DNA from: an uncultured Acidobacteriota bacterium
Lineage (GTDB): Bacteria; Acidobacteriota; Vicinamibacteria; Fen-336
DNA length: 64,000 nucleotides
Reading direction: 5' to 3'
NCBI GenBank assembly: GCA_963720545.1
Contig: OY970399.1
Location: 1,600,001-1,664,000, forward strand
The notes below the pieces were generated by a model. That model did no database searches. It saw nothing but the letters and a program-made list of their open reading frames with translations, and was not told the origin of the DNA. Position 1 is the stretch's first letter. Every line of letters begins with the position of its first letter. A program made the translations under genes and the position numbers. Below are positions 1,483 through 42,283 of this stretch, in pieces.

Positions 1483-1651
1483 GTGCGCCTCCTCAAGTAC
1501 GACAACGACGTCAACCTTGTGCCTGCCAAAACGTCCGGCCGGGCGGCCCTTTGAGCGAACTAGTGGCGTTCGTTCGTGTCGTCGCGGGGAGACGGACGGT
1601 AGGGGTGGTGCTCGAGCAGGTTGACCATGAGGTTCGCCGGTAATCCGGAGG

Positions 1652-3028: not shown

Positions 3029-4380
3029 GCCGAGGCCGAGGCGATGGCGGCGCCGAGGATGTCGAGGCCCTCGTTCAGTTCGGCGTCCGAGATCACCAGC
3101 GGCATCAGGGTGCGCACCACGTTGCCGAGCGTGCCGGCGGTGACCGTCACCAGGCCGTGCTCATAGCAGTGCTTCGCGATCGCCGCGGTCTGTTCCTTCG
3201 CCGGCGCCTTGGTGGCGCGGTCGGTGACGAACTCGATGCCCCACATCGCGCCGATGCCGCGCACCTCGCCGACCAGCGCATGCTTCGCCTTCCAGGCTTC
3301 GCCGCGCGCCTTGACGATGGCGCCGATCTCGTTGGCGCGGAGCAGCAGGGCGCCGTCCTCGAACTGGTCCAGGACCGCGAGCGCGGCGGCGAGCGACACC
3401 GGGTTGCCGCCGTAGGTGCCGCCAAGGCCGCCGACGATGGCGGCGTCCATGATCTCGGCGCGCCCGGTCACCGCTGCGAGCGGGAACCCGCCGGCGATCG
3501 ACTTGGCGCTGATCAGGATGTCGGGCACGACGCCCGAGTGCTCGATGGCGAACAGCTTGCCGGTGCGGCCGAAGCCGGTCTGCACCTCGTCCACGATCAG
3601 CAGCATGCCGTGCTTCGTGGTCAGCTCGCGCAGCCTGCCGAAGTAGTCGGGCGGCGGCACCACGAAGCCGCCCTCGCCGAGCACCGGCTCGACGATGATG
3701 GCCGCGACCTTGTCGGCTTCGACGTGGCGCTTCCACATGTCCTCGAGCGCGTCCATGCAGGCCTGCGTCGGATCCTTGGCGGCTGCGCCGAGCGCCGAGC
3801 GGTACGCGTACGGAAACGGCATGCGGTAGATCTCGGGCGCGAACGGCCCGAACCCGGTCTTGTAGGGATGCACCTTCGACGTGAGGCTCATGGTGAGCAG
3901 CGTGCGCCCGTGGAACGCGTCTTCCGCCGCGACGATCGCCGGCCGGCCGGTGGCGACGCGCGCGATCTTCACCGCGTTCTCGACCGCCTCGGCACCGGAG
4001 TTCACGAACAGCGTCTTCTTGGCAAAGGCGCCCGGTACCTTGGCGTTCAGGCGTTCGGCAAGCGTCACGTAGCTCTCGTAGGGCATCACCGCGAAGGCAC
4101 TGTGGGTGAGCTTCTTCGCCTGCGCGGCTGCGGCTGCCGATACCGCGTCGTTGGTGTGGCCGACGTTCAGGCAGCCGATGCCGCCGGCGAAGTCGATGAG
4201 GCGGTTGCCGTCCACATCCTCAACGGTTGCGCCGTGCGCCGAGGCGACGAAGATCGGCGTCGCGTGGGCGGGGCCGCGCGGCACCGCGGCGTCGCGCCGC
4301 GCCATGAGGGCCCGCGAGCGGGGGCCGGGAATCTGGGTCTTGAGCGAGACGGCGGAAGCGGCGCGGGTTTCGGTGGCCAT
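3025..4380 (-). CDS. gabT: 4-aminobutyrate--2-oxoglutarate aminotransferase
   Basis: IDFAGGIG, NSGAEAVENAVKIAR, FHGRT, EPVLGEGGF, DEVQTGFGRTG, GGLGGTYGGNP. Confidence 0.88.
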   Translation of the reverse strand: MATETRAASAVSLKTQIPGPRSRALMARRDAAVPRGPAHATPIFVASAHGATVEDVDGNRLIDFAGGIGCLNVGHTNDAVSAAAAAQAKKLTHSAFAVMPYESYVTLAERLNAKVPGAFAKKTLFVNSGAEAVENAVKIARVATGRPAIVAAEDAFHGRTLLTMSLTSKVHPYKTGFGPFAPEIYRMPFPYAYRSALGAAAKDPTQACMDALEDMWKRHVEADKVAAIIVEPVLGEGGFVVPPPDYFGRLRELTTKHGMLLIVDEVQTGFGRTGKLFAIEHSGVVPDILISAKSIAGGFPLAAVTGRAEIMDAAIVGGLGGTYGGNPVSLAAALAVLDQFEDGALLLRANEIGAIVKARGEAWKAKHALVGEVRGIGAMWGIEFVTDRATKAPAKEQTAAIAKHCYEHGLVTVTAGTLGNVVRTLMPLVISDAELNEGLDILGAAIASASA

Positions 4381-4411
4381 GGTCGTTAGCGCGGTACTTT
4401 ACGCCTGTTGG

Positions 4412-5779
4412 CTAGGTCTCCAGGATGGCCGCGACCGACTCGCGAAACGCCTCGGTGTGGCGGTCGATGTCGAGCGCCGTCGCCTGCGGCGCGATGAGCG
4501 CCATGTTGTGGAACGGCGTCATCAGGATGCCGCGGTTGAGCGCGGCGAGGTGCATGTAGCGGTCGAGTTCATGGTCGACAGCGGCCGCGGCTTCGCCGCC
4601 ATTTCGCGGGGCTTGCGGGGCGAACCAGTACTCCGCCCGGCACCCCAGTTGTTTCACGATCCAGGGCAGCAAGAACTCGGCGATTGCCGCCTCGACGCCG
4701 GCCGCGAAGCGTGCGGCGAGCGGAACGGTGCGCGCGAACGCCGCTTCGGTGAGCACCGACTCGAGCGTGGCGCGCATCGCCGCGAGCGACAATGCGTTGC
4801 CGGCGAGCGTGCCGCCGGTGCCGTTCGTGTCGGAGTCGGCGGCCGGCGAGCATTCGGCGACGCGGTGCGCGACCTCGGCCGAGAGGCCGTAGACCGCCGC
4901 GGGAATGCCGCCGGCGATGGGCTTGCCGAGCACCAGCATGTCGGGCTCGAGGTTGTGGGCGCGCGTGTAGCCGCCCGGTCCGGCGCTGATGGTGTGGGTC
5001 TCGTCAATGACCAGCAGCGTGCCGGTGCGGCGTGTCAGCTCGCGCAGTCCTTCGTGGAAGCCCGGTTCCGGCAGGACGATGCCGATGTTGGTCATCGCCG
5101 GTTCGGCGAGCACGCAGGCGACGTCGCCGGGCAAAAGCGCCGCCTCGAGCGCCGCGAGGTCGTTGAACTCGACGACCTTCGTGGTGAGCGCCGGGTCGAC
5201 CGCGGGCCCGAGGTTCCCAGGACGGGCGCGTGCCTGGCCGTCCGCGCCCAGCACCACCAACGTCTCGTCCACGGTGCCGTGATAACACCAGTTGAAGACC
5301 AGCACCTTCGGCCGCCCGGTGATGCCGCGCGCCAGCCGCAGCACGAAGCGGTTGGCGTCCGTCGCGGTCAGTGCCACCTGCCAGTACGGCAAGGAGAAGC
5401 GCCGCTGCAGCTCCTCGCCCACCCACACGGCGTCGGCGGTCGGCAGCATGAATGTGGTGCCGCGGCGCAGCCTTTCGATCGCCGCGGACACCGCCGGCCA
5501 CGGTGCGTGGCCGGTCATGGCGCCGGTGTCGCCGAGGCACAGGTCTACGTAGTCATGGCCGTCCGCGCAGGTGAAGTGCGTGCCGCAGCCGCTCTCCACG
5601 AACAACGGAAAGGCGCCGGCCCAGCGCACCATCCAGTTCATCGGCACGCCGCCGAGCAGCGATCCCCGGGCGCGCTCGAAGAGCGCACTCGAGCGCGGGT
5701 GGGCGGCGGCGAACCGCGCGTCCTCGGCGGCGGTGGCCGTGGCGAGGCGTTCCCGCGAGATTGGCGTGGCGCCGCTCAA
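4412..5779 (-). CDS. Class III PLP aminotransferase (aspartate aminotransferase family)
   Basis: DLCLGDTGAMTGH, YHGTVDE, IDETHT, LGKPIAGG, GGTLAGN. Confidence 0.85.
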   Translation of the reverse strand: MSGATPISRERLATATAAEDARFAAAHPRSSALFERARGSLLGGVPMNWMVRWAGAFPLFVESGCGTHFTCADGHDYVDLCLGDTGAMTGHAPWPAVSAAIERLRRGTTFMLPTADAVWVGEELQRRFSLPYWQVALTATDANRFVLRLARGITGRPKVLVFNWCYHGTVDETLVVLGADGQARARPGNLGPAVDPALTTKVVEFNDLAALEAALLPGDVACVLAEPAMTNIGIVLPEPGFHEGLRELTRRTGTLLVIDETHTISAGPGGYTRAHNLEPDMLVLGKPIAGGIPAAVYGLSAEVAHRVAECSPAADSDTNGTGGTLAGNALSLAAMRATLESVLTEAAFARTVPLAARFAAGVEAAIAEFLLPWIVKQLGCRAEYWFAPQAPRNGGEAAAAVDHELDRYMHLAALNRGILMTPFHNMALIAPQATALDIDRHTEAFRESVAAILET

Positions 5780-10118: not shown

Positions 10119-12242
10119 TTAGCGGGAACCGATCTCGCGCAGCCTTTCCCTTGCAGCCGTGAACGACGGCTGCAAGGCGAGCGTCTTGCGGAACCAAGGC
10201 TCGGCGTCTGCCGGGCGCGACTGGCGCAGCAGCGTGAGGCCCAGGTTGTAGTTGTAGAGCGGATCCTTGCCGTCGAGCTTGACGGCTTCGCGGAACACCT
10301 TCTCCGCTTCCGCCATCTGCCCCTGGCCACCCAGCACCATGCCGAGCGAGTTCCAGTAGGACGCCTGCGTGCCGTCGAGGGCGACGGCTTCGCGCAAGAG
10401 CCGGATGGCATCGCCGGGACGGTTTGCGTCGCGGTACATCTCGCCCAGCTGCACCTTGGCGAGGGCGTTCTTCGGTGCCAGCGCGACCGCCGCCTCGTAG
10501 GCGCGCACGGCGTCCTGCGGGCGCTCGAGGCGGCGGAAGATGCGCGCCTGCGCCAGCGGCAGCTGCGAGTCGGTGGGCGCGGCCTTCACGCCGCGCTCCA
10601 ATGCCGCGAGCGCGCCGGCGCTGTCCCCCATCTCGAGGCGCGCATCGGCGATGCCGACGTAGGCGGCACCGTAACCCGGCAGCCGCTCCAGCGCTTTCTC
10701 GTAGTGCGCGGCGGCGTCGCGGTAGCGCCGCGTCTGGGCCAGCGCCCGGGCCAGGTAGTAGTGCAGCTCGAAGCTCTCGATGCCGCGCTTCTGCAGCTCC
10801 GCGAAGCGCACGACGCTGTCCTGCGGCCGCTGCTCGCGCAGCGCCACGAGGCCCTCGCGCATCAGGCGGTTGACGAGCTTGTAGTCCTCGACCTTGTCCT
10901 TGGGATCGGCGCCAGTGGCGGCACCGGCTGGCACCGTACCGGCGCCGATGTAGCCGAGAGCGCCGAGCTTTTCGAGCATCTCGGGCGGGATGGCGGCCGC
11001 GGCGCCGCTGTCCTTTGCCCGCGCCTTCTCGGCCGTGAGCCATTGCGCGAGGGCGCCACGCAGCGCCGCGGCTTTGGCCGGCTGGCTCGCCGCGAGGTTT
11101 TGCAGCTCGCCGGGATCGTCCTTCAGGTCGTAGAGCTCGGCGCGCGGCGCCTGGATGTACTTGTAGCGGCCGTCGCGCAGCGTTCGCAGGTCGCTCCAGC
11201 CGAAGTGCAGCAGAGGCACCAGCGACTCGGCATAGATCGGCTCGCTGCCCGCGACCGCGCCGCCGCGCAGCGCCGGCGCCAGGCTGCGTCCCGAAAGCTT
11301 CAGCCCTGGTGGCTGCGCCATGCCGAGGAGCTCGAGAGCCGTCGGAAAGACGTCGACCGTGCGCGCGGGTGCGTCGAAGCGACGGCCGGGCACGACGCCT
11401 GGCGCACGAATCACGAGCGGCACGTGCAGGGTCGACTGGTAGACGAAGAAGCCGTGGACGCTTTCGCCGTGCTCGCCCAGGCCCTCTCCATGGTCGGAAG
11501 TGACGACGAGCGCCGTGCTGTCGGCGACCCCGAGGCGTTTCAGCGCGGCGTCGAGCCTGCCGACCAGTTCGTCCGACCAGGCCACTTCGCCGTCGTAAGG
11601 CCGCCCGGGGTAGCGCGAGGCATAAGGTTCCGGCGGTTCGTACGGGTCGTGCGGATCGTAGAGGTGCAGCCACAGGAAGAAGCGCCCCTGCGCCGCGTTC
11701 TGCTGCAGCCAGTCGATCGCCTCCGCGGTCGGCCCGTCGCCGCGCTTCTGGATGGTGTTGAGAAAGCGCGCATCGTCCTCGCCGATCTCGAAGCGGTCGG
11801 AGTAGGTCGCAAAACCCCGCGCCAGGCCCGACTGTCGCGACAGCACCACCGACGACACGAACGCGGCGGTGCGGAAGCCGGCCTGCGCCAGCGTGTCGGC
11901 GAGCGTCGGCACCGCGGCGACAAGGCCCGGGGTGACGTTGTCGCGCTGGCCGTGTTCGGCCGGGTACAGGCCGGTGAAGAGGCTCGTGTGCGACGGCCGG
12001 GTCAGCGGCACGTGCGCCGAGGCATTCGTCGCCAGGGCACCCGCGGCGGCCATGGCGTCGATATGGGGCGTCGCCACCGAAGCGCCGTAGCAGCCAAGGT
12101 GGTCGGCGCGCAGCGTGTCGATGGTGACGATGACCAGGTTCTTCGAGGTGGGCGGCGGCGGCGCGGTGCGGGTGCAGCCCGCGACGAAGAGCAGCAACGA
12201 GGCGGCGGCCAGTCCCAGTCCCCGCTTCGAGGTGGCGGCCAT
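10119..12242 (-). CDS. Sulfatase-like (alkaline-phosphatase superfamily) lipoprotein with C-terminal TPR repeats
   Basis: Lipobox VAGC; TIDTLRAD, TRPSHTSLFTG, HLYDPHDPY, SDHGE; TPR-like helical repeats. Confidence 0.85.
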   Translation of the reverse strand: MAATSKRGLGLAAASLLLFVAGCTRTAPPPPTSKNLVIVTIDTLRADHLGCYGASVATPHIDAMAAAGALATNASAHVPLTRPSHTSLFTGLYPAEHGQRDNVTPGLVAAVPTLADTLAQAGFRTAAFVSSVVLSRQSGLARGFATYSDRFEIGEDDARFLNTIQKRGDGPTAEAIDWLQQNAAQGRFFLWLHLYDPHDPYEPPEPYASRYPGRPYDGEVAWSDELVGRLDAALKRLGVADSTALVVTSDHGEGLGEHGESVHGFFVYQSTLHVPLVIRAPGVVPGRRFDAPARTVDVFPTALELLGMAQPPGLKLSGRSLAPALRGGAVAGSEPIYAESLVPLLHFGWSDLRTLRDGRYKYIQAPRAELYDLKDDPGELQNLAASQPAKAAALRGALAQWLTAEKARAKDSGAAAAIPPEMLEKLGALGYIGAGTVPAGAATGADPKDKVEDYKLVNRLMREGLVALREQRPQDSVVRFAELQKRGIESFELHYYLARALAQTRRYRDAAAHYEKALERLPGYGAAYVGIADARLEMGDSAGALAALERGVKAAPTDSQLPLAQARIFRRLERPQDAVRAYEAAVALAPKNALAKVQLGEMYRDANRPGDAIRLLREAVALDGTQASYWNSLGMVLGGQGQMAEAEKVFREAVKLDGKDPLYNYNLGLTLLRQSRPADAEPWFRKTLALQPSFTAARERLREIGSR

Positions 12243-12244
12243 GG

Positions 12245-13012
12245 CTAGAGGATGGTGCGGCGCTCGAAGTTGCGGGCGCCGACGAGAGCGAAGAACGCGG
12301 TGAAGAACACGGTGCCGCCGAGCAGCAGCGGCAGCGGCATGTGCGGCACGTTCGGCGTTACCGCGTAACGCATCGACTCGCTCATGAAGGTGAGCGGGTT
12401 CAGCAGGAACACGTACTGCAGCGGGCCCATCACGCCGAGCGAGGCCCACGGGTAGTAGGCGCAGCCGAACATCATCATCGGGCCGAGGATCACCGCGAAC
12501 AGCAGGCCGGTGAAGCGCTGCTGGATGGCCGTGCCAAGCGTCAGGCCGAAAGCGGCCGACAGCAGGCCGCCGAGGATGGCGAAGGGCGGCAGCGCCAGCC
12601 AGTTGGGGCGCACCGTGCTGCCGGCGAGGCGGTGCATGAGGAACACCATCACCGGCAGCGCCAGCACGCCGGCTAGCGTTGCGTGCACGGAGCCCGCGAG
12701 GATCTTGCCAAATGCCACCTCGCGCACGCTGATGGGCGCCAGCAGCCGCTCGTCCACCTCGCGGCTGCCGCCGAGGTCCACGACCAGCGGCATCAGCACG
12801 CTCTGTACCCCCGCCATCAGGATCGAGATCGACATGAGGCCGGGCAGCATGGCGGTGCCGAAAGCGTCGGAGACGAGCCCGAGCCGCGGCAGGATGTTGC
12901 CGAACACCAGCACGATGAGGATCGGCTGGGTCATGGTGCCGAGCAGCAGGAACGGCAGGCTCTTGCCGATCACGTAGAGGTCGCGGTAGAGGAGCGCCAG
13001 GAAGGTCTTCAA
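12245..13012 (-). CDS. ABC-2 type exporter permease
   Basis: TTG start overlapping the ATPase stop; ~6 TM segments; ERLLAPIS and LNPLTFMSESMR motifs. Confidence 0.85.
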   Translation of the reverse strand: MKTFLALLYRDLYVIGKSLPFLLLGTMTQPILIVLVFGNILPRLGLVSDAFGTAMLPGLMSISILMAGVQSVLMPLVVDLGGSREVDERLLAPISVREVAFGKILAGSVHATLAGVLALPVMVFLMHRLAGSTVRPNWLALPPFAILGGLLSAAFGLTLGTAIQQRFTGLLFAVILGPMMMFGCAYYPWASLGVMGPLQYVFLLNPLTFMSESMRYAVTPNVPHMPLPLLLGGTVFFTAFFALVGARNFERRTIL

Positions 13013-13980
13013 TCGCGCAGCTCGCGGCCGGTAAGGTGGATGTAGACGTCCTCGAGGCTCGGCGGAGTCAGGCTCACGTGGTGCAGCTCGGCGCCTTGCT
13101 CGCGTGCCGCCGCCAGGACGCGGTCGAGGATGCCCTCGCGCGACGAGAGGAAGAGGCGAATGCGCTCGAGGTCGCTGTTCTCCTCGGCGACCCCTTCGAC
13201 GCGCGCGACGCCGGCAAGCGTCCCGAGCAGGGGTGCCAGCGGCGCCTGGCCCTTGATCCACAGGTCGAGGATGTCGCCGCCGGGCAGCGAGGCCTTGAGC
13301 GCCGCGGGCGTGTCGAGGCGCAGGATCTTGCCGTGATCGACGATCGCGAGGCGCTCGCAGAGGAGATCGGCCTCTTCCATGTTGTGGGTGGTGAGGATGA
13401 TCGTCAGGCCGCCGCGGTGCAGGCGCGCGAGGGTTTCCCACAACAGGCGCCGCGCCTGCGGATCGAGGCCGGTCGTGGGCTCGTCGAGCAATAGCACCGC
13501 CGGGTCGTGCATCAGCGCGCGCGCGATCATCACCCGCTGCTGCATGCCGCCCGAGAGCGTCAGCGGCTTGGCATCGGCCTTCTCTTCCACCTGCATCTCG
13601 CGCAGCAGCCGTTCGGCGCGGCTGGCGATTTCCTGCGCGTCGAGCGCGAAGTAGCGGCCGTGAAAGGTGAGCACCTGGCGCACGCTCAGGTCGCGGTCGA
13701 GGTTTCGCACCTGCGGCACCACGGCGATCGCGCGCTTGGCGCGCCTGCCGTCCTTCACCACGTCGATGCCGTCCACCAGGATGCGGCCGCCGGTGGGCTT
13801 CACCATGGTGGTGACGCAGCCTATGGTGGTGCTCTTGCCGGCACCGTTCGGCCCCAGCAAGCCGAAGAACTCGCCGCGCGCCACCGTGAACGACACACCG
13901 CGCACCGCTTCGACTGCCGGGGTGCGGCGCCGCGCGGGATAGGTCTTGTGCAGGTCCTCGACGACCAGCGCCTGGTTCAC
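13009..13980 (-). CDS. ABC transporter ATP-binding protein (DrrA/NodI-like)
   Basis: GPNGAGKS, LSGGMQQR, LLLDEPTTGLD; GTG start overlapping the hutI stop. Confidence 0.92.
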   Translation of the reverse strand: MNQALVVEDLHKTYPARRRTPAVEAVRGVSFTVARGEFFGLLGPNGAGKSTTIGCVTTMVKPTGGRILVDGIDVVKDGRRAKRAIAVVPQVRNLDRDLSVRQVLTFHGRYFALDAQEIASRAERLLREMQVEEKADAKPLTLSGGMQQRVMIARALMHDPAVLLLDEPTTGLDPQARRLLWETLARLHRGGLTIILTTHNMEEADLLCERLAIVDHGKILRLDTPAALKASLPGGDILDLWIKGQAPLAPLLGTLAGVARVEGVAEENSDLERIRLFLSSREGILDRVLAAAREQGAELHHVSLTPPSLEDVYIHLTGRELRD

Positions 13981-15245
13981 AGCCGCCGGCCGTCCGCGAC
14001 CACCATGGTGCCGTCCTTCAGCACCCGCGAGATGGCCGGGACGCCGACCCGCACCAGGTCGAGGAGCCGATCGGAGCGCAGCACCACGAAGTCGGCGCGC
14101 TTGCCGACCTCGATGCTGCCGACGCTGTGGTGCAGGTCGAGCGAGTACGCTGCATTGATGGTCACGGCCGCGACCGCTTCCTCGAGCGAGAGCCCCATGC
14201 CGAAGCACGCCATGGCCATGGCGAACGGCAGCGACGGCGACAGGCCGCCGCCGGGGTTGGCGTCGGTCGCCACCGCCACCGGCACCGCAGCGTCGATCAG
14301 CGCGCGCGCCGGCGCGTAGCGGCCGAGGCGCAGGAAGAGCGCCGCCGACGGCAGCAGCGTCGCCACGGTGCCGGCCGCCGCCATCGCGGCGATGCCAGCC
14401 GGCGAAACGTGCAGCAAGTGGTCGGCGGAGCGCGCGCCGAGTTCGGCCGCCACTTCGGCGCCGCCGGTCCAGGCCAGCTCATCGGCGTGCACGCGCGCCT
14501 TCATGCCGTTGGCTTCGGCGCAGCGCAGGATCTGGCGCGTCTCGTCCACCGTGAAGACGCCCTCTTCGCAGAAGACGTCGCAGAAGGTGGCGAGCCGCCG
14601 CCGCGCCACTTCGGGAATCATCTCGTCGCACAGGAGGCGGATGTACCCGGCGCGGTCGCCGCGGTGCTCGACCGGCACGTCGTGCGCGCCGAGGAAGGTC
14701 GGCACCACCGTGCAGGGATGACTGCTCGCCGCATCGCGGATGGCTTCGAGCGTGCGGATCTCGGACTCGGTGGTGAGGCCGTAGCCGCTCTTGATCTCGA
14801 CGCTGGTGGTGCCGCACAGCAGCATCTCGTCTAGGCGCCTGATGAGCGTGTCGCGCAGCTCGGCGCGCGACGCGTTGCGCGTGGCCGCCACGGTGCTGAC
14901 GATGCCGCCACCGGCGGCGGCGATGTCCTGGTAGCTGCGGCCGGCAAGGCGCATGCGAATTTCGTCGTCGCGGTTGCCGAGGTAGGCGATGTGCGTGTGC
15001 GCGTCCACGAACCCCGGCAGCACCAGGGCGCCGTCCACTTCGAGCACCGAGCCCTCGGAGAGCACGTTCACGTGGCCCTCCCAGTCGCTGTCTGCGCCCA
15101 CCCAGACAATCTGTTCGTCGAGCACCGCAACGCAGGCGTTCTCGACGATGGCAAGGTCGCCCAGCGCGGCGCCGGTGCGCGGCGCCGGGCCCGCGAGCGT
15201 CGCGAGCCTGCCGATGCGGCGAATGACGAGGTCGGCGTCGATCAT
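13977..15245 (-). CDS. hutI: Imidazolonepropionase
   Basis: PGFVDAHTH, GGGIVSTV.ATR, EIKSGYGL, DVFCEEG, HADEL, ATDANPG. Confidence 0.9.
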   Translation of the reverse strand: MIDADLVIRRIGRLATLAGPAPRTGAALGDLAIVENACVAVLDEQIVWVGADSDWEGHVNVLSEGSVLEVDGALVLPGFVDAHTHIAYLGNRDDEIRMRLAGRSYQDIAAAGGGIVSTVAATRNASRAELRDTLIRRLDEMLLCGTTSVEIKSGYGLTTESEIRTLEAIRDAASSHPCTVVPTFLGAHDVPVEHRGDRAGYIRLLCDEMIPEVARRRLATFCDVFCEEGVFTVDETRQILRCAEANGMKARVHADELAWTGGAEVAAELGARSADHLLHVSPAGIAAMAAAGTVATLLPSAALFLRLGRYAPARALIDAAVPVAVATDANPGGGLSPSLPFAMAMACFGMGLSLEEAVAAVTINAAYSLDLHHSVGSIEVGKRADFVVLRSDRLLDLVRVGVPAISRVLKDGTMVVADGRRL

Positions 15246-29380: not shown

Positions 29381-29425
29381 TTGCAGTATGCATTTATCTG
29401 CAGTACTCTTGCATTTCAATGCAGT
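29381..29425 (+). promoter_or_regulatory. arg operon promoter overlapped by tandem ARG boxes
   Basis: tATGCATttatCTGCAGt (29387-29404) and cTTGCATttcaATGCAGt (29408-29425), 3 bp apart; -35 TTGCAG (29381-29386), 17 bp, -10 TACTCT (29404-29409). Confidence 0.85.
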
Positions 29426-29888
29426 CAAAGATCACCCGGCAGCGGGCCATCCTCGAGCTCGTGGCGCTCGGACAGGTTGCCACCCAGGCGGAGCTGAAGC
29501 TGCGCCTCAAGGAACGCGGCATCGCAGTCGACCAGGCGACCCTGTCGCGCGACGCCCGGGAGCTGAACCTCGTCAAGGTGGGCGACGCGGCGGGGGGCTA
29601 TCGCTATGCGACGGTCGAGCAGGTGTCGCACACCGCCGGCGGCAAGGCGAGCGTGGTGCTGGCGCGGCTGGTGCGCGGCGCCGACTGCTCGGGAAACGTG
29701 GTGGTGGTGCGCACCGCGGTCGGCGACGCGCAGCCGGTGGCGCTCGCCATCGACCACCTCGGCTGGCCGGAGGTCGTCGGCACCCTCGCCGGCGACGACA
29801 CCATCCTCATCGTGGTGCGCGAAGGCGTGGCGGCGCGCAAGGTCGTGAAGAAGGTTCTCGGTTTCTCGCACGGAAAGAAGGACGCGGC

Positions 29889-29892
<4 letters not shown>
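29419..29892 (+). CDS. argR: Arginine repressor
   Basis: RQRAILELV, TQAEL, QATLSRD, VVGTLAGDDTILIV. Confidence 0.95.
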
Positions 29893-31088
<1,196 letters not shown>

Positions 31089-31090
31089 GC

Positions 31091-32476
31091 ATGCCGAGCC
31101 TGCTGCGCGAGCGGTTCGCGACCGGCGCCGACCCCTTCACCGAGAGCTTCGTCGCATCGGTTGTCGACGACGCCCGCCTGGTGCGCTTCGACATCGAAGG
31201 CTCCATCGCCCATGCGGCGATGCTGGAGAAGTGCCACCTGCTGACGCGGCGCGAGGGCGCACGCCTGCGCGCCGCGCTGGCGCGCATCCTCGCCGACTGG
31301 GAGGCCGGCCGCTTCGTCCTCGACCCGGCCGACGAAGACGTGCACATGAACGTCGAGCAGCGCCTGGGCCGCTCGGTGTCGCACAAGCTGGCCGCGAAGC
31401 TGCACACGGCGCGCAGCCGCAACGATCAGGTGGCGCTCGACCTGCGCCTCTGGGTCCGGGCCGAGGGCGCGCTGCTCCAGGCTTCGGTGCGGGCGTTGCT
31501 GCGCGCGCTCACGACCCGCGCCGCGCGCGAGGCCGGCACGCTGCTGCCGGGGGTCACCCACCTGCAGCACGCGCAGGTGGTGAGCCTCGGGCACGTCCTG
31601 CTGGCCCATCACGACCGCATCGCGCGCGACCAGGCACGGCTGCGCGACGCGCTGGGCCGCGCCGAAGTGTCGCCGCTGGGCGCCGGGGCGCTCGCCGGCA
31701 CCTCGCTGCCGATCGCGCCGCGCCTCACGGCGCGCGCGCTCGGCTTCCCTGCCACCTTCACGAACTCGATCGATGCGGTCAGCGACCGCGACTTTGCCGT
31801 CGAGTTCGTCTCGGCCTGCGCGCTGCTCGCCACACATCTGTCGTCGCTGGCCGAAGACTTCATCCTCTGGTCGACACCGGAATTCGGCTTCATCGAGCTG
31901 CCCGACGCGCTCACCACCTCTTCCTCGATGCTGCCGCAGAAGAAGAACCCGGACACGGTGGAGCTGGTACGCGCCAAGGCGGCGGTGGTAACCGGCGCCC
32001 TGGTGACGCTCCTCGGCACACTCAAGGGACTGCCGATCGGCTACAACCGCGACCTGCAGGAAACCAAGCCGCCGCTGTTCGCGGCGGCCGATGCCGTGCG
32101 CGGCGCGGTTGCGGCCATGACCGCCGCCGTCGCCGGCATGCGCGTCGATCGCGCCCGCATGGCGGCCGCCGCCGCCGATCCGGCGCTGGTGGCGATCGAC
32201 CTCGTCGAACACCTGGTGACGAACGGCGTGCCGTTTCGCCGCGCGCACGGCATCGTCGCGCGCGTCGTGCGCGACTGCGCTGCCGCGTCGCGGCCGCTGC
32301 TGTCGCTGAATGCCGCCGAATGGCGCCGCTACTCTCCAGCCCTCACCCCCGCAGTCGCCGCACGCCTTACGCCCGCGGCCTCCGCCGGCAAGCGCCGTTC
32401 CCCGGGCGGCACCGCGCCGTCTCTGGTGGCGGCGCGGGCCCGGAGCTTGATGAAGCACGCAAGGAGGTCCGCATGA
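31091..32476 (+). CDS. argH: Argininosuccinate lyase
   Basis: EDVHMNVE, LHTARSRNDQV, SSMLPQKKNPD, YNRDLQE. Confidence 0.96.
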   Translation: MPSLLRERFATGADPFTESFVASVVDDARLVRFDIEGSIAHAAMLEKCHLLTRREGARLRAALARILADWEAGRFVLDPADEDVHMNVEQRLGRSVSHKLAAKLHTARSRNDQVALDLRLWVRAEGALLQASVRALLRALTTRAAREAGTLLPGVTHLQHAQVVSLGHVLLAHHDRIARDQARLRDALGRAEVSPLGAGALAGTSLPIAPRLTARALGFPATFTNSIDAVSDRDFAVEFVSACALLATHLSSLAEDFILWSTPEFGFIELPDALTTSSSMLPQKKNPDTVELVRAKAAVVTGALVTLLGTLKGLPIGYNRDLQETKPPLFAAADAVRGAVAAMTAAVAGMRVDRARMAAAAADPALVAIDLVEHLVTNGVPFRRAHGIVARVVRDCAAASRPLLSLNAAEWRRYSPALTPAVAARLTPAASAGKRRSPGGTAPSLVAARARSLMKHARRSA

Positions 32477-33501
32477 AGTCGCAGACGCCGTCGCCGATCC
32501 TGGTTCCCGTCACCTATTTCGCCTCGGTCACCACGCCGCTCCGCCTCACGAACCCGGTCGAGCTCGATGGCGAAGCGAACGTGACGCCGGGACAGGTCGT
32601 CGTGGTGCGCGCCCTCGGCGAGAACCCGAAGTATCCGGAGCTCGAGCTGTGCGACGGCAGCCGGGTGGTGGTGCGCGCCGGCGACGTCATCGCCACCACG
32701 GTCGGCAGCCGCCAGGCGCTGCGCGGCTTCGTCGGCGAGTCGCCGAAGCGGGTCGCCACAGGCGACGTGCTCGGCCTCCTCAACCTCGGCGGCGTCGTCG
32801 GCCGGCCGATCTCGGGCAGCGCCGAAGTGGGCATGCCGGTGCCGGTGGAAGTGCTCGGCGTGTCGCGCCTGCACCTCGCCGATGTCGCCTTGCCCCGGCC
32901 GCGCTCGCTCGCCTCGATCCCGCCCATCGTCCTGGTCGCCGGCTCGTGCATGAACGTCGGCAAGACGGTCACCACCGAGAAGCTGATCGCCGGCCTCACG
33001 GCGCGCGGGCTCAAGGTCGGTGGCGCGAAGATCACCGGCGTCGGCTGCCTCAAGGACCAGATCCGCATGCTGGCCGCCGGCGCCGTGAAGGCGTACACAT
33101 TCCTCGACTGCGGCGTGCCTTCGACCGTCGACAGCGACGACGTCGCCGGCATCGCGCGCGCGATCGCGGCGGCGCTGCAAGGCGCCGACGCCATCGTCAT
33201 GGAGATGGGCGACGGCATCGTCGGCCACTACCGCGTCGACCGGCTGTTCGACGACAAGGAGCTGATGGCGCGCATCGACTCGCTGGTGTTCGTAGCCAGC
33301 GACCTGACCGCGGCCTGGGGCGGCAAGGAATTCCTGGCACGCCGCGGCGTGACGATCACGGCCGTCACCGGTGCGGCCACCGACAACGACTCCGGCGTGA
33401 ACTTCATCGAGCGCGAACTCGGCATCCCCGCCGCCAACTCGGTGCGCCAGACCGAGAAGCTGCTCAACACGCTGTCGCTGTCGCTCTCGATCGCCGTTTG
33501 A
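32473..33501 (+). CDS. DUF1611-like P-loop protein inside the arg operon; candidate N-acyl-glutamate synthase
   Basis: AGGAGG RBS, ATGA overlap with argH; VAGSCMNVGKT P-loop, GAKITGVG..KD, FLDCGVPST, EMGDG. Confidence 0.7.
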   Translation: MKSQTPSPILVPVTYFASVTTPLRLTNPVELDGEANVTPGQVVVVRALGENPKYPELELCDGSRVVVRAGDVIATTVGSRQALRGFVGESPKRVATGDVLGLLNLGGVVGRPISGSAEVGMPVPVEVLGVSRLHLADVALPRPRSLASIPPIVLVAGSCMNVGKTVTTEKLIAGLTARGLKVGGAKITGVGCLKDQIRMLAAGAVKAYTFLDCGVPSTVDSDDVAGIARAIAAALQGADAIVMEMGDGIVGHYRVDRLFDDKELMARIDSLVFVASDLTAAWGGKEFLARRGVTITAVTGAATDNDSGVNFIERELGIPAANSVRQTEKLLNTLSLSLSIAV

Positions 33502-33503
33502 GC

Positions 33504-34481
33504 GTGGTTCGTACTGTCGTCTGCGGTGCGTCCGGTTACATTGGCGGCGAAGCCGCGCGCCTGCTGCTCGCCCATCCCGACTTCGAGCTCGTTGGCGTCT
33601 GCGGCAGCGAGACGGCTGGCCAGCGCCTCGACGCGGTGATCCCGGCGCTGCGCGGCTTCACCGACCTGGTGGTGGCGCAGGACGTGCCGCCCGCCGATGC
33701 CTACGTGCTTGCGATGGGCCACGGCGAAGCGATGCGCCTCGCGCCGACCCTTGGAGGCAGGATCGTCGACCTCTCCGGGGACTTCCGCCTGCAGGACCCG
33801 GCGGCCTACGAGCGCTACTACAAGCGCCCGCACGGCGCCACGGAACTGCTGCCGCAGTTCGCCTATGGCGTCCCCGAGATCAACGCGGCTGCGATCCGCG
33901 AGTCGCGCCACGTGGCGGCCGGCGGCTGCTTCGCCACCGCCGCCATCCTGTCGCTGTGGCCGCTGCGCCGCCTCACGGTGGGCACGGCGATCGTCGACGG
34001 CAAGACCGGGTCCTCCGGCAGCGGCGTGCGGCCGGGAGAGAAGACCCATCATCCGTTTCGCGACGGGGCCTTCTTTCCCTACGAGCCATTCCACCACCGA
34101 CACGTGCCCGAGATCGAGCAGGCGACCGGCGTCAAGGTCCTGTTCCAGCCGCACTCGACGCCGCTGGTGCGCGGCGTGTTCACCACCAGCTACATCACGC
34201 TCGCCGAAGCGGCCACCACCGACATGCTGCTCGACCTGTTCAGTGCCGCCTACACGGGCTCGCGCTTCGTGCGCGTGGGCAAGGGCGCGGTGAACGTCAC
34301 CAACGTCCGCGGCTCGAACTTCATCGACATCGGCGTCGTCTCCGAGGGGCGCACGGCGATCGTGTTCGCGGCCCTGGACAACCTCGTCAAGGGCGGCGCA
34401 GGCCAGGGGATCCAGTGCCTGAACCTGATGTTCGGCTTCGACGAGACGCGCGGCCTGTTGCAGGCGCCGGCGCGGCCATAA
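33504..34481 (+). CDS. argC: N-acetyl-gamma-glutamyl-phosphate reductase
   Basis: GASGYIGGE, IVDLSGDFRL, YGVPE, GGCFAT, DNLVKGGAGQ. Confidence 0.95.
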   Translation: MVRTVVCGASGYIGGEAARLLLAHPDFELVGVCGSETAGQRLDAVIPALRGFTDLVVAQDVPPADAYVLAMGHGEAMRLAPTLGGRIVDLSGDFRLQDPAAYERYYKRPHGATELLPQFAYGVPEINAAAIRESRHVAAGGCFATAAILSLWPLRRLTVGTAIVDGKTGSSGSGVRPGEKTHHPFRDGAFFPYEPFHHRHVPEIEQATGVKVLFQPHSTPLVRGVFTTSYITLAEAATTDMLLDLFSAAYTGSRFVRVGKGAVNVTNVRGSNFIDIGVVSEGRTAIVFAALDNLVKGGAGQGIQCLNLMFGFDETRGLLQAPARP

Positions 34482-34514: not shown

Positions 34515-35651
34515 ATGGGACTGCTGAAGACGTTCAAGACGCTGCCGCTCGAAGTGGAGCGCGGCGCCGACGTGTGGGTCTGGGACTCCGCCGGGCGGCG
34601 CTACCTCGACCTCTACGCCGGCCACGCCGTCTGCTCCACCGGCCACTGCCATCCGAAGGTGGTGGCCGCGATCCAGCGGCAGGCGGCGACACTCATCTTC
34701 TATTCGAACGTCGCCGGGTCGCGGCTGCGGGACGCGGCCGCCGAGCAGCTGCTCGCGCATGCGCCGCACTTTTCTTCGGTGCTGTTCGCGAACTCGGGCG
34801 CCGAGGCCAACGAGAACGCGCTCAAGATGGTGCGGCGCCTCACCGGCCGCGAGCAGGTCATCGCCATGGACGGCGGCTTTCACGGCCGCACCGCCGGCGC
34901 CATGTCGGTGACCGGCGTCGCAAAGTACCGCGCGACCTCGCAGCCCCTGCTCCCCGGCGTCACCTTCGTGCCATTCGGCGCAACGCCGCGGGTGGGCACC
35001 GACGTGGCGGCGGTCATCGTCGAGCCGGTGCAGTCGATGGCGGGTATGAAGACTGCGCCGCCGTCCTGGTTTCGCGAGCTGCGCGCTGCCTGCGACGCGG
35101 CGGGCGCGCTCCTCATCTTCGACGAAGTGCAGACCGGCATCGGCCGCACCGGCACCATGTTCTTCTCCGGCCGCGACGGCGTGAACGCGGACCTCGTCAC
35201 GCTCGCGAAGGGCATCGGCAGCGGCTTTCCCCTGTCGGCGGTGCTGGCGACGGCGCCGGTGGCGGCGAGCGTGCAGTACGGCGAGTACGGCGCCACCTAC
35301 GGCGCCGGCCCGCTCGCGATGGCGGCGATGCAGGCGACTCTCGAGGTCGTGGACGGGCTGCTGCCGTCGGTGCGCGAAGTCGGCCGCTATCTTGCCGGGC
35401 GCTGTGCCGCCGTTCCCGGCGTCGCCGAGGTGCGCGGGCTCGGTCTCCTCCTCGGGCTGAAGCTGCAGGGCGGCGCGGATGCCGGTGCGGCGCAGCGCGC
35501 GCTCCTCGCTGCCGGCTTCATCACCGGCACCGCGGACGAGCCCTCGGTGCTGCGGCTGCTGCCGCCCTTGACCCTCACGCGCGAGCACGTCGATGCGTTC
35601 GTGCCGGCTCTCGAATCGGTCCTGCAGGCGTGGGCGGCGCCTGTTTCCTGA
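34515..35651 (+). CDS. argD: Acetyl/succinylornithine aminotransferase
   Basis: NSGAEANENALK, FHGRT, DEVQTGIGRTG, LAKGIGSGFP; operon context. Confidence 0.88.
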   Translation: MGLLKTFKTLPLEVERGADVWVWDSAGRRYLDLYAGHAVCSTGHCHPKVVAAIQRQAATLIFYSNVAGSRLRDAAAEQLLAHAPHFSSVLFANSGAEANENALKMVRRLTGREQVIAMDGGFHGRTAGAMSVTGVAKYRATSQPLLPGVTFVPFGATPRVGTDVAAVIVEPVQSMAGMKTAPPSWFRELRAACDAAGALLIFDEVQTGIGRTGTMFFSGRDGVNADLVTLAKGIGSGFPLSAVLATAPVAASVQYGEYGATYGAGPLAMAAMQATLEVVDGLLPSVREVGRYLAGRCAAVPGVAEVRGLGLLLGLKLQGGADAGAAQRALLAAGFITGTADEPSVLRLLPPLTLTREHVDAFVPALESVLQAWAAPVS

Positions 35652-36655
35652 TGGCCGTGCCGCGCGACTTCATCAGCACGCTCGACTGGTCGAAGCCGCA
35701 GCTGACGGCGCTGCTGCGCGACGCGGCGGCCCTGAAGAAGTCGCGGCGCAGCGGCAACGCCAGGGCACGGCCGCTCGCCGGCAAGAGCATGGCGCTCCTC
35801 TTCTTCAACCCGTCGTTGCGCACCCGCGTCTCGTTCCAGGTGGCGCTCGCCGAACTTGGCGCAACTGCCGTCGCCTCGACCGTCGGCGCCGATTCCTGGA
35901 CGCTCGAGCATCGCGCCGGCGCCGTCATGGACCAGGACCGCACCGAGCACGTCAAGGATGCCGCCGCGGTGCTCTCGCGCTACGTCGACGCGATCGGCGT
36001 GCGTTCGTTTCCCGGGCTGCAGTCGCTCGCTGACGACATGGCCGATCCGGTGATCGCCGCTTTCCGCAGCTACGCGTCGGTGCCCGTCGTCAACCTCGAG
36101 TCCGCGTTGTGGCATCCGTGCCAGGCCCTGGCCGACGCCATGACCGCGGCCGAGCGGCTGGGCCGTGGGGCCTTCGACCCCGGCGTGCTCAAAGGGGCGC
36201 GGGTGACGCTCACGTGGGCCTATCACCCCAGGGCGCTGCCCACAGCGGTCGGCAACTCGTTCGCGGCCATCATGTCGCAGCTGGGCGCCGACCTCACGAT
36301 CGCGCATCCGCCGGAGTTCCCGCTTCCCGAACAGGTGCTTCGGGCGCTGCCGCGGGCGCCGCGCATCGTGCACAGCAAGCAGGACGGACTCGCGGGCGCG
36401 CAGATCGTGTGCGCGAAGTCGTGGGGTGCGCTTGGCTACTACGGGCGCTGGGCTGCGGAAGCAAAGCTGCGCAACACCTTGCGCAGCTGGATTTGCGACA
36501 CCGTGCCTGCCAAGGCGACCTTCCTCCATTGCCTGCCGGTGCGCCGCAACGTGGAAGTGGCCGACGCCGTGCTCGACGGTCGCGGCAGCGCCATATATGA
36601 CGAGGCCGAGAACCGGCTGCACGTGCAGAAGGCGATCCTCAAGAGGCTCTTGTGA
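35651..36655 (+). CDS. argF: N-acyl-ornithine carbamoyltransferase (AOTCase/SOTCase family, ArgF')
   Basis: FFNPSLRTR, MDQDRTEH, HPCQ, LTWAYHP, HCLPVRRNVE: family-specific motifs distinct from ordinary OTCase. Confidence 0.9.
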   Translation: MAVPRDFISTLDWSKPQLTALLRDAAALKKSRRSGNARARPLAGKSMALLFFNPSLRTRVSFQVALAELGATAVASTVGADSWTLEHRAGAVMDQDRTEHVKDAAAVLSRYVDAIGVRSFPGLQSLADDMADPVIAAFRSYASVPVVNLESALWHPCQALADAMTAAERLGRGAFDPGVLKGARVTLTWAYHPRALPTAVGNSFAAIMSQLGADLTIAHPPEFPLPEQVLRALPRAPRIVHSKQDGLAGAQIVCAKSWGALGYYGRWAAEAKLRNTLRSWICDTVPAKATFLHCLPVRRNVEVADAVLDGRGSAIYDEAENRLHVQKAILKRLL

Positions 36656-37542
36656 AGTCCGGCGACCTCGACACATTGCGCGAAGCGCTGCCCTACATCA
36701 ACCGCTTTCGCGGCACCACCTTCGTGGTGAAGATCGGCGGCGAGATCGCCGACCAGGCGGAGACGCTCGCGCCCTTCTGCCAGGAAGCGGCGCTGCTCGC
36801 GCGCGTCGGCATCCGCATGGTGGTGATCCACGGCGGCGGCAAGCAGGCGAGCGAACTGCAGCAGCGGCTCGGCATCGAGCCACGCATGGTGCAAGGCCGG
36901 CGCGTCACCGACTCGGACACGCTCGACATCGTGATGATGGCGTTCGCGGGCAAGGTCAACACCGAGATCCTCTCGTCCTTCCGCAAGTCAGGCGTCGACG
37001 CGGTCGGCCTCTCCGGCATCGACGGCGGCATCGTCCATGCCGTGCGCCGGCCGCCGAAGCAGGTGCGCGATGAAAAGACCGGTATCGACGAGATGGTCGA
37101 CTACGGCCACGTCGGCGACATCGAGAGAGTGGACCCGCGCCTGCTGACGGCGCTGCTCGACCAGGATTTCGTGCCGGTGATCGCCTCGCTCGGCGGCGAC
37201 GACGACGGCGCCATCTTCAACATCAACGCCGACACTGTGGCGGCGAAGATCGCCGGCGCGCTGCGCGCCGAAAAACTCATCCTGGTGACCGACGTCGAGG
37301 GCATCCTCGACGGCGGCGGAGCCCTCATCTCGCGCGCCACACCCGAAGAGGTCGACAGCGCCATCCGGGGCGGCGTCATCCGCGGCGGCATGGTGCCGAA
37401 GGCGCAGTCGGCCGTAGGCGCGCTCGGCGAGGGGGTCGGCACCGTGCACATCATCAGCGGCAAGCGCCCCTCGACGCTCCTGGGCGAAGTGTTCACCGAA
37501 AAGGGCTCGGGCACCATGATCACGCGCACGGCGCTTCGGTGA
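36652..37542 (+). CDS. argB: Acetylglutamate kinase
   Basis: EALPYI..F.G.TFVVKIGG, HGGG, GRRVTD, NINADT.A, GGMVPK; no fused GNAT domain. Confidence 0.95.
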   Translation: MKSGDLDTLREALPYINRFRGTTFVVKIGGEIADQAETLAPFCQEAALLARVGIRMVVIHGGGKQASELQQRLGIEPRMVQGRRVTDSDTLDIVMMAFAGKVNTEILSSFRKSGVDAVGLSGIDGGIVHAVRRPPKQVRDEKTGIDEMVDYGHVGDIERVDPRLLTALLDQDFVPVIASLGGDDDGAIFNINADTVAAKIAGALRAEKLILVTDVEGILDGGGALISRATPEEVDSAIRGGVIRGGMVPKAQSAVGALGEGVGTVHIISGKRPSTLLGEVFTEKGSGTMITRTALR

Positions 37543-37578: not shown

Positions 37579-38604
37579 ATGGCTCGACCGCGAGACCGGA
37601 CGCAGCGCCGCACCGTTGACGCAGCTTCGGCCGCGCTCCTGGCACTCGCCGCGGCGGCGCTCGCCGCCCTCGGTAGCGCCGCCGCGGGCAGCGTCGCCTA
37701 CAGCGCGCCGGCCGCACCCGGCTTCGGCATGCTGCACCTCGGCCCCGAACGGCTCGTGATCTCCTATCCCGACGCGCAGGGCACGGTGAAGGGGCACCTC
37801 GTCGCACGCATCAACCGCGACCGGCAGCTGCACGGCGTGCCGCCGCTGCGCTACGACGCGCGACTGGCGCTCACCGGCGACCGCTTCACCCACGACCAGG
37901 CGCTCGCGGCCTCGAACGGCCACTGGGACCCGGCGGGCCGCCCGCCTTACGTGCGCTGGGGCCTCGCCGGCGGCGTCGACTTCCACTCGCAGAACGCCGG
38001 CTCCTATTCGAACAGCGGCGGCATCGTCCCGGACGCGATCGAGGCGATCGCGCTGCAGATCCACGAGAGCATGATGGACGAGAGGCCGCCCGACGACGGC
38101 CACCGCCAGACCATCCTCAATCCCCTGCTGACCCACGTGGGTATCGGCCTGGCGCAGGTCGGCGGCGAGTTCCGCATCACCGAGGAGTTCAGCCGCGTCG
38201 CCTTCGAGTGGCTCGAGGTTCCCGATCGGCCGCTGCGGCCAGGCACCATCGCCGCCTTCTCGGGCAAGCCGCTCGCCGGCTTGGAGGTCGGCGTTGTCGA
38301 AATCGCGTTCGAGCCGCCGCCGCGCAAGCTCACGACGCGCGAGTTGAACAGCCGCGGCAGTTACTCGTACCCGCGCGCCTACAAGACGCTCTACCCGAAG
38401 CTGCGTAACGGCGGGTTCTATCGCAGCGGCGAAGCCGGCGAGTTCGACATCAGGCAGGACGGCGCCTTCTCGCTGCAGTTTCGCTGCGACCAGGGCCCCG
38501 GCTACTACTTCGTCCTCTGTTACGTGCGCAAGCGCGGCGAGCGGAACCCGCAAATGTTCCCGGCCACCGCGGCCATGGTCACCGTGGTCGCAAATAAGGG
38601 CTGA
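37579..38604 (+). CDS. Secreted CAP/SCP-domain protein
   Basis: Signal peptide; INRDR..HG.PPL.YD, MMDE.PPDDGHRQTILNP..THVGIG. Confidence 0.8.
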   Translation: MARPRDRTQRRTVDAASAALLALAAAALAALGSAAAGSVAYSAPAAPGFGMLHLGPERLVISYPDAQGTVKGHLVARINRDRQLHGVPPLRYDARLALTGDRFTHDQALAASNGHWDPAGRPPYVRWGLAGGVDFHSQNAGSYSNSGGIVPDAIEAIALQIHESMMDERPPDDGHRQTILNPLLTHVGIGLAQVGGEFRITEEFSRVAFEWLEVPDRPLRPGTIAAFSGKPLAGLEVGVVEIAFEPPPRKLTTRELNSRGSYSYPRAYKTLYPKLRNGGFYRSGEAGEFDIRQDGAFSLQFRCDQGPGYYFVLCYVRKRGERNPQMFPATAAMVTVVANKG

Positions 38605-38663: not shown

Positions 38664-40735
38664 ATGACATTAGCTCAAGAACGCATCGACGCTGCTGCCG
38701 CCTCCTTGCGCCCGCCGAAGGCTCAGGAAAGACCGCACCAGGACACCTTCCACGGCGAAGTGCGCGACGACGACTACTTCTGGCTGCGCGACAAGGACGA
38801 TCCGGCGGTGCGCGAATACCTCGAGGCCGAGAACGCCTACGCCGACGGCATCATGGCCGGCACCGGCGAGCAGCAGGAGCGGCTCTACAAGGAGATGCTG
38901 TCGCACATCAAGGAAACCGATCTCTCGGTTCCCTACCGCGACGGCGGCCACTTCTACTACTCGCGCACCGAGGAGGGCTTGCAGTATCCGATCTACTGCC
39001 GCAAGCAGGGTTCGCTCGACGCGGCCGAAGAAGTGGTCCTCGACCTCAACGCGCTCGCCGCAGGCCAGCCGTTCATGGCGCTCGGCGCCTACGACGTCAG
39101 CAACGACGGCACGCTGCTCGCCTACTCGCTCGACAACACCGGCTTCCGCGAGTACACGCTCTACGTGATGGACCTGCGCACCCGCGCGCTCATCGGCGAA
39201 CCGATCCCGCGCACGGGTTCGGTTGCGTGGGCGCAGGACGGCAAGACGCTCTTCTACACCGTCGACGACAGCGCCAAGCGTCCGTACCGGCTGTACCGCC
39301 ATGTGCTCGGCACCGCAAGCCACGACCTGGTGCACGAGGAGAACGACGAGCTCTTCCGCATCGGCGTGGGCCAGACGCGCAGCCGCAAGTACATCCTGAT
39401 GTTTGCCGGCAGCCACACCACCAGCGAATGGTCGTACCTCGACGCGTCGGCGCCGCAGGGCGAGTTCCGTCTGGTGAGCCCGCGTCAGCACCAGCACGAA
39501 TACGACGTCGAGCATCACGGCGAGCGCTTCTTCATCCGCACCAACGACAGCGGCCGCAACTACCGACTGGTGGAGGCGCCGGTCGCGACTCCCGGCCGCG
39601 AACACTGGAAGGAAGTGGTGGCGCACCGGCCCGCGGTGATGCTCGAGGGCATCGAGTGCTTCGCGGGGTTCTACGCGCTGCTGGAGCGCGAGGACGGCGT
39701 GCCGCACGTGCGCATCACCGACATCGCCAGCGGCAAGTGGCACCGCATGGCGTTCCCGGAACCGGCGTATTCGGTGTTCCCCGCCGCCAACGTCGAGTGG
39801 CAGACCAGCCTGTTCCGCTACTCGTACCAGTCGCTCGTGACGCCGAACTCGATCTACGACTACGACGTCGCCGCGCGCAGCGCGACGCTCCTGAAGCAAA
39901 TCGAGGTACCGGGCGGCTTCGACGCCGCGAACTACGTGTCGGAGCGGCTGAGCGCGCGCGCCGCGGACGGCGTCGAAGTGCCGATCTCGCTCGTCTACCG
40001 CCGCGACCGGCGGCCCGCGGGCGGCGCGATGCCGCTTTACCTCAACGGCTACGGCTCCTACGGCTTTTCGCTGCCGGTCGCGTTCTCGGCGACGCGCCTG
40101 GTGCTGCTCGACCGCGGCGTCGCCTTTGCCATGGCGCACATCCGCGGCGGCGGCGAGATGGGCAAGCCGTGGCACGACGACGGCCGGATGCTGCGCAAGA
40201 TGAACACGTTCACCGACTTCATCGCGGTTGCCGAGCACCTGATCGCGGCGGGCTACACGACGCCCGGGACGCTGGCGATCGAAGGCGGCAGCGCCGGCGG
40301 CTTGCTGATGGGCGCCGTCTGCAACCTGCGCCCGGACCTCTTCCACGTGGTCGTCTCCAAGGTGCCGTTCGTGGACGTCATCAACACCATGATGGACGGC
40401 TCGCTGCCGCTGACGGCCGGCGAGTGGGAAGAGTGGGGCGACCCGCACAAGCCCGACGAGTACGCCTGCATCCGCCGCTATTGCCCGTACTCGAACCTCG
40501 AGGGCAAGGCGTATCCGCGCATGCTGGTGAAGACGGCGCTGAACGACAGCCAGGTGATGTTCTGGGAGCCGGCAAAGTACGTGGCGCGAATGCGGGCGCT
40601 GCGCCATGACCCGAACCTGCTGCTGCTCAAGACCAACATGAACGCCGGCCACGGCGGCTCTTCCGGCCGCTACGACTACCTGCGCGAGATCGCGTTCGAC
40701 TACGCCTTCGTCCTCAACCAACTGGGAATTGAGCC

Positions 40736-40739
<4 letters not shown>
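38664..40739 (+). CDS. ptrB: Oligopeptidase B (S9A)
   Basis: DDYFWLRD, HIRGGGEMG, GGSAGGLL, DSQV, AGHGG.SGR. Confidence 0.93.

Positions 40740-42260
<1,521 letters not shown>

Positions 42261-42283
<23 letters not shown>

Follow-up and report, generated by a model that had tools for sequence, protein, structure and literature searches.

A P-loop protein of the arginine operon in an uncultured Acidobacteriota bacterium as a predicted N-succinyl-L-glutamate synthase

Described first-step enzymes and the arg operon

The closest described counterpart of the protein analysed here, termed X, is Steroidobacter ACG33_RS14135 (A0A127FCT3), which the GapMind preprint (10.1101/2024.10.14.618325) predicts to be an alternative ArgA; the passages of the preprint available to us give no experiment, and no bench test of the predicted role was found in the accessible parts of the literature. 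Both are hypothetical proteins of arg clusters that lack ArgA, some of which contain argE, and a weak Foldseek match to PDB entry 7XRJ gives an rmsd of 5.6 and an E value of 1.4e-7 for ACG33_RS14135, and of 5.3 and 3.9e-6 for X. The linked ArgF' proteins never carry Glu92, with position 92 being A/P/S/V/I/T in 97% of cases plus two Gln in the preprint passages, and in 51 of 53 plus two Gln at the X loci. Judged from context, Foldseek and these ArgF' traits rather than from alignment, X and ACG33_RS14135 most likely form one family, and X is probably a member of a family whose functional role is already published as a prediction, as the preliminary description of this DNA had suspected. The preprint passages contain no mention of exclusion of ArgJ, of the P-loop and an ATP-dependent route, of a split from non-arg paralogues, or of carriers lacking ArgF'.

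Two further enzymes invite comparison. The Bacteroidetes ArgA2 (BT3761) is described as an N-succinylglutamate synthase (PMC9026213, seen in part), and X shares with it the proposed product and the pairing with a succinyl-type ArgF', but ArgA2 has a GNAT fold and is unrelated to X. DgcN, which acts on D-glutamate, is named as an N-acetyltransferase in the title of 7XRJ, whereas X stands in a biosynthetic context where the substrate would be L-glutamate, and has a beta-rich N-terminal domain.

The window, a 64,000-nucleotide stretch of contig OY970399.1, holds the gene order argR-G-H-X-C-D-F'-B, entirely on the plus strand (Table 1). The tight coupling noted in the preliminary description is confirmed by the overlap of the X start codon with the argH stop codon (ATGA) and by the 2 bp that separate the X stop codon from the argC GTG, and ArgB is, as that description held, without a GNAT fusion. 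The GC content of X by codon position (0.69/0.48/0.94) is of coding type. Two matches to an ARG-box-like pattern are found 21 bp apart, the spacing of tandem ARG boxes, against 0.14 expected in a scan of the window, a figure that is optimistic in that the pattern was defined post hoc from the site itself. Elsewhere in the window, tblastn with ArgD detects three class-III aminotransferase homologues clustered on the minus strand (490–5611), while 3' of argB lie a CAP-domain protein (37579–38604, Pfam) and, by eye, an oligopeptidase B-like gene and a PaaZ-like aldehyde dehydrogenase gene (38664–40739 and 40736–42283).

Table 1. Positions of the arg operon features in the window
Feature	Positions	Strand	Basis or remark
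ARG-box-like palindrome 1, TGCATTTATCTGCA	29389..29402		Pattern match; likely ArgR operator (predicted)
ARG-box-like palindrome 2, TGCATTTCAATGCA	29410..29423		Pattern match; overlaps the likely argR start
argR, arginine repressor	29419..29892	+	Pfam PF01316 and PF02863; start read from sequence
argG, argininosuccinate synthase	29889..31088	+	TIGR00032, 492 bits against a cut-off of 268
argH, argininosuccinate lyase, 461 aa, without GNAT fusion	31091..32476	+	TIGR00838, 496 against 279.5
X, two-domain protein, predicted N-succinyl-L-glutamate synthase	32473..33501	+	342 aa, ATG to TGA
argC, N-acylglutamyl-phosphate reductase	33504..34481	+	TIGR01850, 317 against 234; GTG start
argD, N-acylornithine aminotransferase	34515..35651	+	Class-III aminotransferase; NF002874/TIGR00707 best, just under cut-offs; assigned by context
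argF', N-acylornithine transcarbamylase, succinyl-type residues	35651..36655	+	NF003384, 358 against 288
argB, N-acylglutamate kinase, 296 aa, kinase domain only	36652..37542	+	TIGR00761, 230 against 151

The genome carrying the window (4.09 Mb in one contig, 94.8% complete) was searched with profiles for the usual suppliers of N-acylglutamate. ArgJ (PF01960) has no match, the sole TIGR01890 match is the kinase part of ArgB, and all 13 GNAT ORFs stay below the ArgA cut-offs, the best scoring 43 bits against the 180 of NF005921, so the reported absence of argA and argJ holds for this genome as far as ArgJ and a recognisable ArgA are concerned. The genome has neither a second copy of X nor a PF07755 match, and it encodes CarB, which rules out X as a substitute for carbamoyl-phosphate synthetase.

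Linkage to arg genes and distribution relative to ArgJ and ArgA

X lies immediately 5' of argC at all 41 phylum loci fetched, across several operon rearrangements, these loci being 40 of the 108 high-scoring ones, chosen to span families rather than at random, and one frameshifted locus. The same position is seen at five of five loci from named genomes and at 15 of 18 metagenome loci, the other three of which stop at a contig edge beside other arg genes. Two genomes of 1.1–1.2 Mb (G364 and G436) retain X within a full arg cluster. An M20 gene scoring best as ArgE/DapE, below cut-off and from partial sequences, accompanies X at 17 of the 41 loci, and ArgE/DapE-family hydrolases are encoded outside the operon in the genome studied here, which rules out X as the deacylase. 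At least four of five Blastocatellia-type loci (L001–L005) have a hydrophobic ORF of ~93–142 aa between argG and argH, and at L092 (G133) a second argC-B-D set (11307–14645) lies immediately 5' of the X-type operon.

The distribution of X was compared with that of ArgJ in a phylum sample of 401 genomes, in which a match of at least 360 bits was taken as full-scoring; the tallies include the unpublished genome G082, and the picture is the same without it. The X family is matched in 124 genomes and ArgJ in 131, with both present in 6 against 40 expected by chance, and those 6 hold only a lower-scoring paralogue outside the arg clusters. ArgJ is found in 0 of 108 genomes with a full-scoring X and in 125 of 277 without any X match, counts that ignore kinship, thereby overstating the number of events, and that do not constitute a statistical test. 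Among 61 near relatives, X occurs only in this genome, G015 and G056, all without ArgJ, and ArgJ is present in 52 of the 58 others. For ArgA, a scan with the two profiles TIGR01890 and NF005840 gave no score over cut-off in any of 78 X genomes, which were taken from 111 by dropping redundant genera. The sole exception is G306, in which an intact X operon coexists with a frameshift-split argA-like gene (L141, 7058–8322, in at least three frames). The anti-correlation of X with argA/argJ, proposed earlier as a check on its role, is seen in these genomes, G306 excepted for argA.

X excludes both usual suppliers of N-acylglutamate, coexists with a deacylase and is kept in genomes of 1.1–1.2 Mb, and by elimination it is therefore proposed to supply N-acylglutamate itself. 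On these grounds X is very probably a first-step synthase of the arginine pathway of some kind, and probably the first enzyme here, forming N-succinyl-L-glutamate. Arg operons of this kind can persist without X, as in G057 and G059 (94–95% complete, single contig), in which argR-C-D-F'-B and argG-H are present, X and ArgJ are missing and no ArgA was detected (L040, L041, L139, L140); either a further first enzyme of another kind or uptake of an acylated precursor would account for them.

These two genomes, the 13 GNAT ORFs noted above and the retention of X beside argC through operon rearrangements would also be compatible with a non-catalytic or regulatory NTPase, for instance a partner of ArgC or ArgB, with a promiscuous GNAT supplying N-acylglutamate, and the fold matches of X do take in SRP GTPases and the HypB/UreG chaperones. 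A regulator, however, is not expected to exclude ArgJ and ArgA, and X is kept in the 1.1–1.2 Mb genomes, with only two NF005840 first-look candidates in G364, making such a role improbable. The strict exclusion between X and ArgJ could instead reflect an ArgJ-like transacylase that returns the acyl moiety of N-acylcitrulline or N-acylornithine to glutamate and replaces ArgA and ArgE together, and at 24 of the 41 loci, this one included, no M20 match falls within the cluster. We consider this very improbable, as the remaining 17 loci do hold an ArgE-like gene beside X, no conserved nucleophile of the kind found in ArgJ was seen, C159 being present in only 47 of 50 arg-linked sequences, and a P-loop is not needed for such chemistry. 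A first-step synthase thus remains our preferred reading.

Domains, fold and family of X

X consists of an N-terminal domain (residues ~8–140), nearly all beta strand in the predicted model and with no clear structural match found, and a P-loop domain of SIMIBI type (~148–335), in which the GSCMNVGKT motif read earlier from the translation does occupy residues 157–165. No Pfam or NCBIfam profile matches X over its cut-off, the GNAT and ArgJ profiles among them, and a search against PDB sequences gives no match at E ≤ 10. Residues K164, T165, K186, D195, D212 and the E244-G-D-G motif are invariant in all 50 arg-linked sequences.

The label DUF1611-like given in the preliminary description stands for the fold of the C-terminal P-loop domain, but not for the protein as a whole. 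The structural match to 7XRJ is remote. The P-loop domain is equally close to BioD, and comparison of the predicted structure places BioD and CTP synthase level, with DgcN no closer. X has no match to PF07755 (gathering threshold 25 bits) at E ≤ 0.1, some relatives matching weakly (best E 1.3e-5). DUF1611_N (PF17396) is matched by none of 115 family members at E ≤ 0.01, and the DgcN equivalog NF041892 (480 bits) by no sequence among 42 from the arg clade at E ≤ 0.001. Control DUF1611 proteins from two X-bearing genomes, in contrast, score 107–148 bits with NF041892 and find 7XRJ, 2G0T and 2OBN at E values of 1e-28 to 1e-42. The DUF1611_N domain is Rossmann-like, and the N-terminal domain of X is beta-rich. 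With only the P-loop domain in common, membership of X in DUF1611/DgcN is rejected. At one locus (L131, 1429–3551) a true DUF1611 gene adjoins a gene whose product, by eye, resembles PLP enzymes of threonine-synthase type more than a racemase.

In enzymes of BioD type, ATP first serves to activate an acid, after which a C–N bond is made. Like these ligases, X has the Walker-A Lys/Thr, a second Lys and acidic residues of Mg type, with D212 and E244 matched by motif only; it differs from BioD, the synthetase domain of CTP synthase and formyltetrahydrofolate synthetase in its additional 140-residue N-terminal domain. The best match of the arg-clade profile among PDB sequences is BioD, weakly so (E 0.006), with K186 aligned to Lys37 of E. 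coli BioD; the similarity spans only ~35–48 residues, and in a profile alignment of the X family to two BioD proteins the P-loops did not align. X is not itself a dethiobiotin synthetase, scoring 16.8 against 83.3 bits with TIGR00347 and standing in an arg rather than a bio context.

The X family comprises 1080 representatives at 50% identity (E ≤ 0.001), and one search returned more than 7,400 proteins at E ≤ 1e-30. Relatives with a recorded source are annotated as 'hypothetical proteins' and come from Planctomycetota, Acidobacteriota, Gemmatimonadota and others, with no Steroidobacter name among the matches listed; names near a locus of the same phylum make Acidobacteriota the most likely phylum of the window. 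Atlas neighbours are mostly hypothetical proteins of Pseudomonadota and Acidobacteriota. In a tree of 173 sequences all 50 arg-linked members fall in one group and all 19 from non-arg loci outside it, with unplaced representatives between the two and the support of the joining node not resolved. The non-arg paralogues often adjoin ATP-grasp ligases, PGA_cap, M20 peptidases or ABC transporters, as judged from 62 of 211 candidate ORFs picked by strand and position. A sister clade (L093–L112) with the Walker motif GxSMxxGKT adjoins YheC/D- and Ddl-like ATP-grasp genes, PGA_cap, M36/M20 peptidases and ABC transporters, and its members beside ATP-grasp and capsule genes are possibly uncharacterised amide ligases. 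One family member (P0165, KAE8149165.1) is recorded from the fungus Aspergillus avenaceus, by transfer or contamination, and two longer homologues, P0174 (626 aa) and P0240 (503 aa), may be fusions.

Acyl group and proposed reaction

The acyl group was read from ArgF'. According to the part of PMC4581275 available, the acetyl enzyme has Glu92/Asn185/Lys302, and the succinyl enzyme A/S/P/V/Q, P and V/I/E at these positions. Aligned to the X. campestris AOTCase, the ArgF' of this operon has T/P/E, its Thr92 not being among the residues of the rule as given there. In X-linked ArgF' proteins Glu92 occurs in 0 of 53, Pro185 in all 52 parsed, and E, V or I at position 302 in 47 of 50, with Lys302 kept in three. 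The pathway intermediates are likely succinylated because residues 92, 185 and 302 are of succinyl type, and the product of X here is likely N-succinyl-L-glutamate.

That X instead makes N-acetylglutamate in this genome, or accepts both acyl groups, is made unlikely by the 0 of 53 for Glu92, the 52 of 52 for Pro185 and the T/P/E of the operon's own ArgF'. It would nevertheless fit the three ArgF' proteins that keep Lys302, the Thr at position 92 and the greater similarity of the ArgF' of this operon to the X. campestris AOTCase (E 1e-78) than to the B. fragilis SOTCase (E 2e-45). It would also fit the 16 of 78 X genomes that lack ArgF' and use only an ordinary-type ornithine transcarbamylase, a context seen in G141 and G165, and because of these 16 the succinyl reading does not span the whole X family. 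At L081, L084, L085, L087, L088 and L090, with L142 and L143, X-argC-D-B clusters occur in genomes that carry an argF of ordinary type in their argR-G-H cluster.

With N-succinyl-L-glutamate as the favoured product, X would succinylate L-glutamate on its amino group, and the N-succinylglutamate formed would feed ArgB, ArgC, ArgD and the succinyl-type ArgF'. The succinyl group is likely removed by an ArgE-like hydrolase whose gene lies elsewhere in the genome. An ATP-dependent ligase is suggested by the alignment of the invariant K186 to BioD Lys37; Lys15 and Lys37 are listed only as pocket residues in the part of PMC9932657 available. The P-loop would bind ATP-Mg, a free carboxylate would be activated as an acyl-phosphate held by K164 and K186, and glutamate would attack this acyl-phosphate (succinate + ATP + Glu -> N-succinyl-Glu + ADP + Pi). 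We consider such a BioD-like succinate:glutamate ligase possible, at somewhat under an even chance, and propose more tentatively that X belongs to the BioD/CTP-synthase class, works as an ATP-driven ligase independent of CoA, carries an N-terminal domain whose fold is unclassified, and re-attaches the succinate freed by the ArgE-like hydrolase in the last part of the pathway.

Transfer from succinyl-CoA to L-glutamate by a DgcN-like enzyme, in which the P-loop would hold the CoA pyrophosphate, is nearly as likely as the ATP route and is the reading implied by the available passages of the GapMind preprint and by the preliminary description. DgcN also keeps the P-loop lysine and, by eye, has an Arg at the position of K186, so residues of the K164/K186 type are also compatible with acyl-CoA as the donor. 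On the other side, X resembles DgcN in fold no more closely than it does BioD or CTP synthase, has no NF041892 match and a different N-terminal domain, and shows the full set of nucleotide- and Mg-type residues as invariant.

The earlier reading of X as a non-GNAT N-acyl-L-glutamate synthase is accordingly retained for the first-step role, which linkage and ArgJ exclusion support, but not for the DUF1611 kinship, and the product is now likely succinyl; complementation of E. coli argA may consequently give a false negative for X. The exclusion of ArgJ, the 16 X genomes without ArgF' and the invariant Lys aligned to BioD Lys37 are new here, and they sharpen the question of mechanism (ATP and succinate versus succinyl-CoA) and the boundary between arg-linked members and paralogues. 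If the role of X is confirmed, the first-step gap in arginine synthesis would be closed for a large family, present in 108 of the 401 genomes sampled from an abundant phylum, and a non-GNAT route to N-acylglutamate would be added. Should X prove to be an ATP-dependent ligase, it would represent a third first-step chemistry, after acyl-CoA transfer by GNAT enzymes and transacetylation by ArgJ, in roughly one in four of the phylum genomes sampled.
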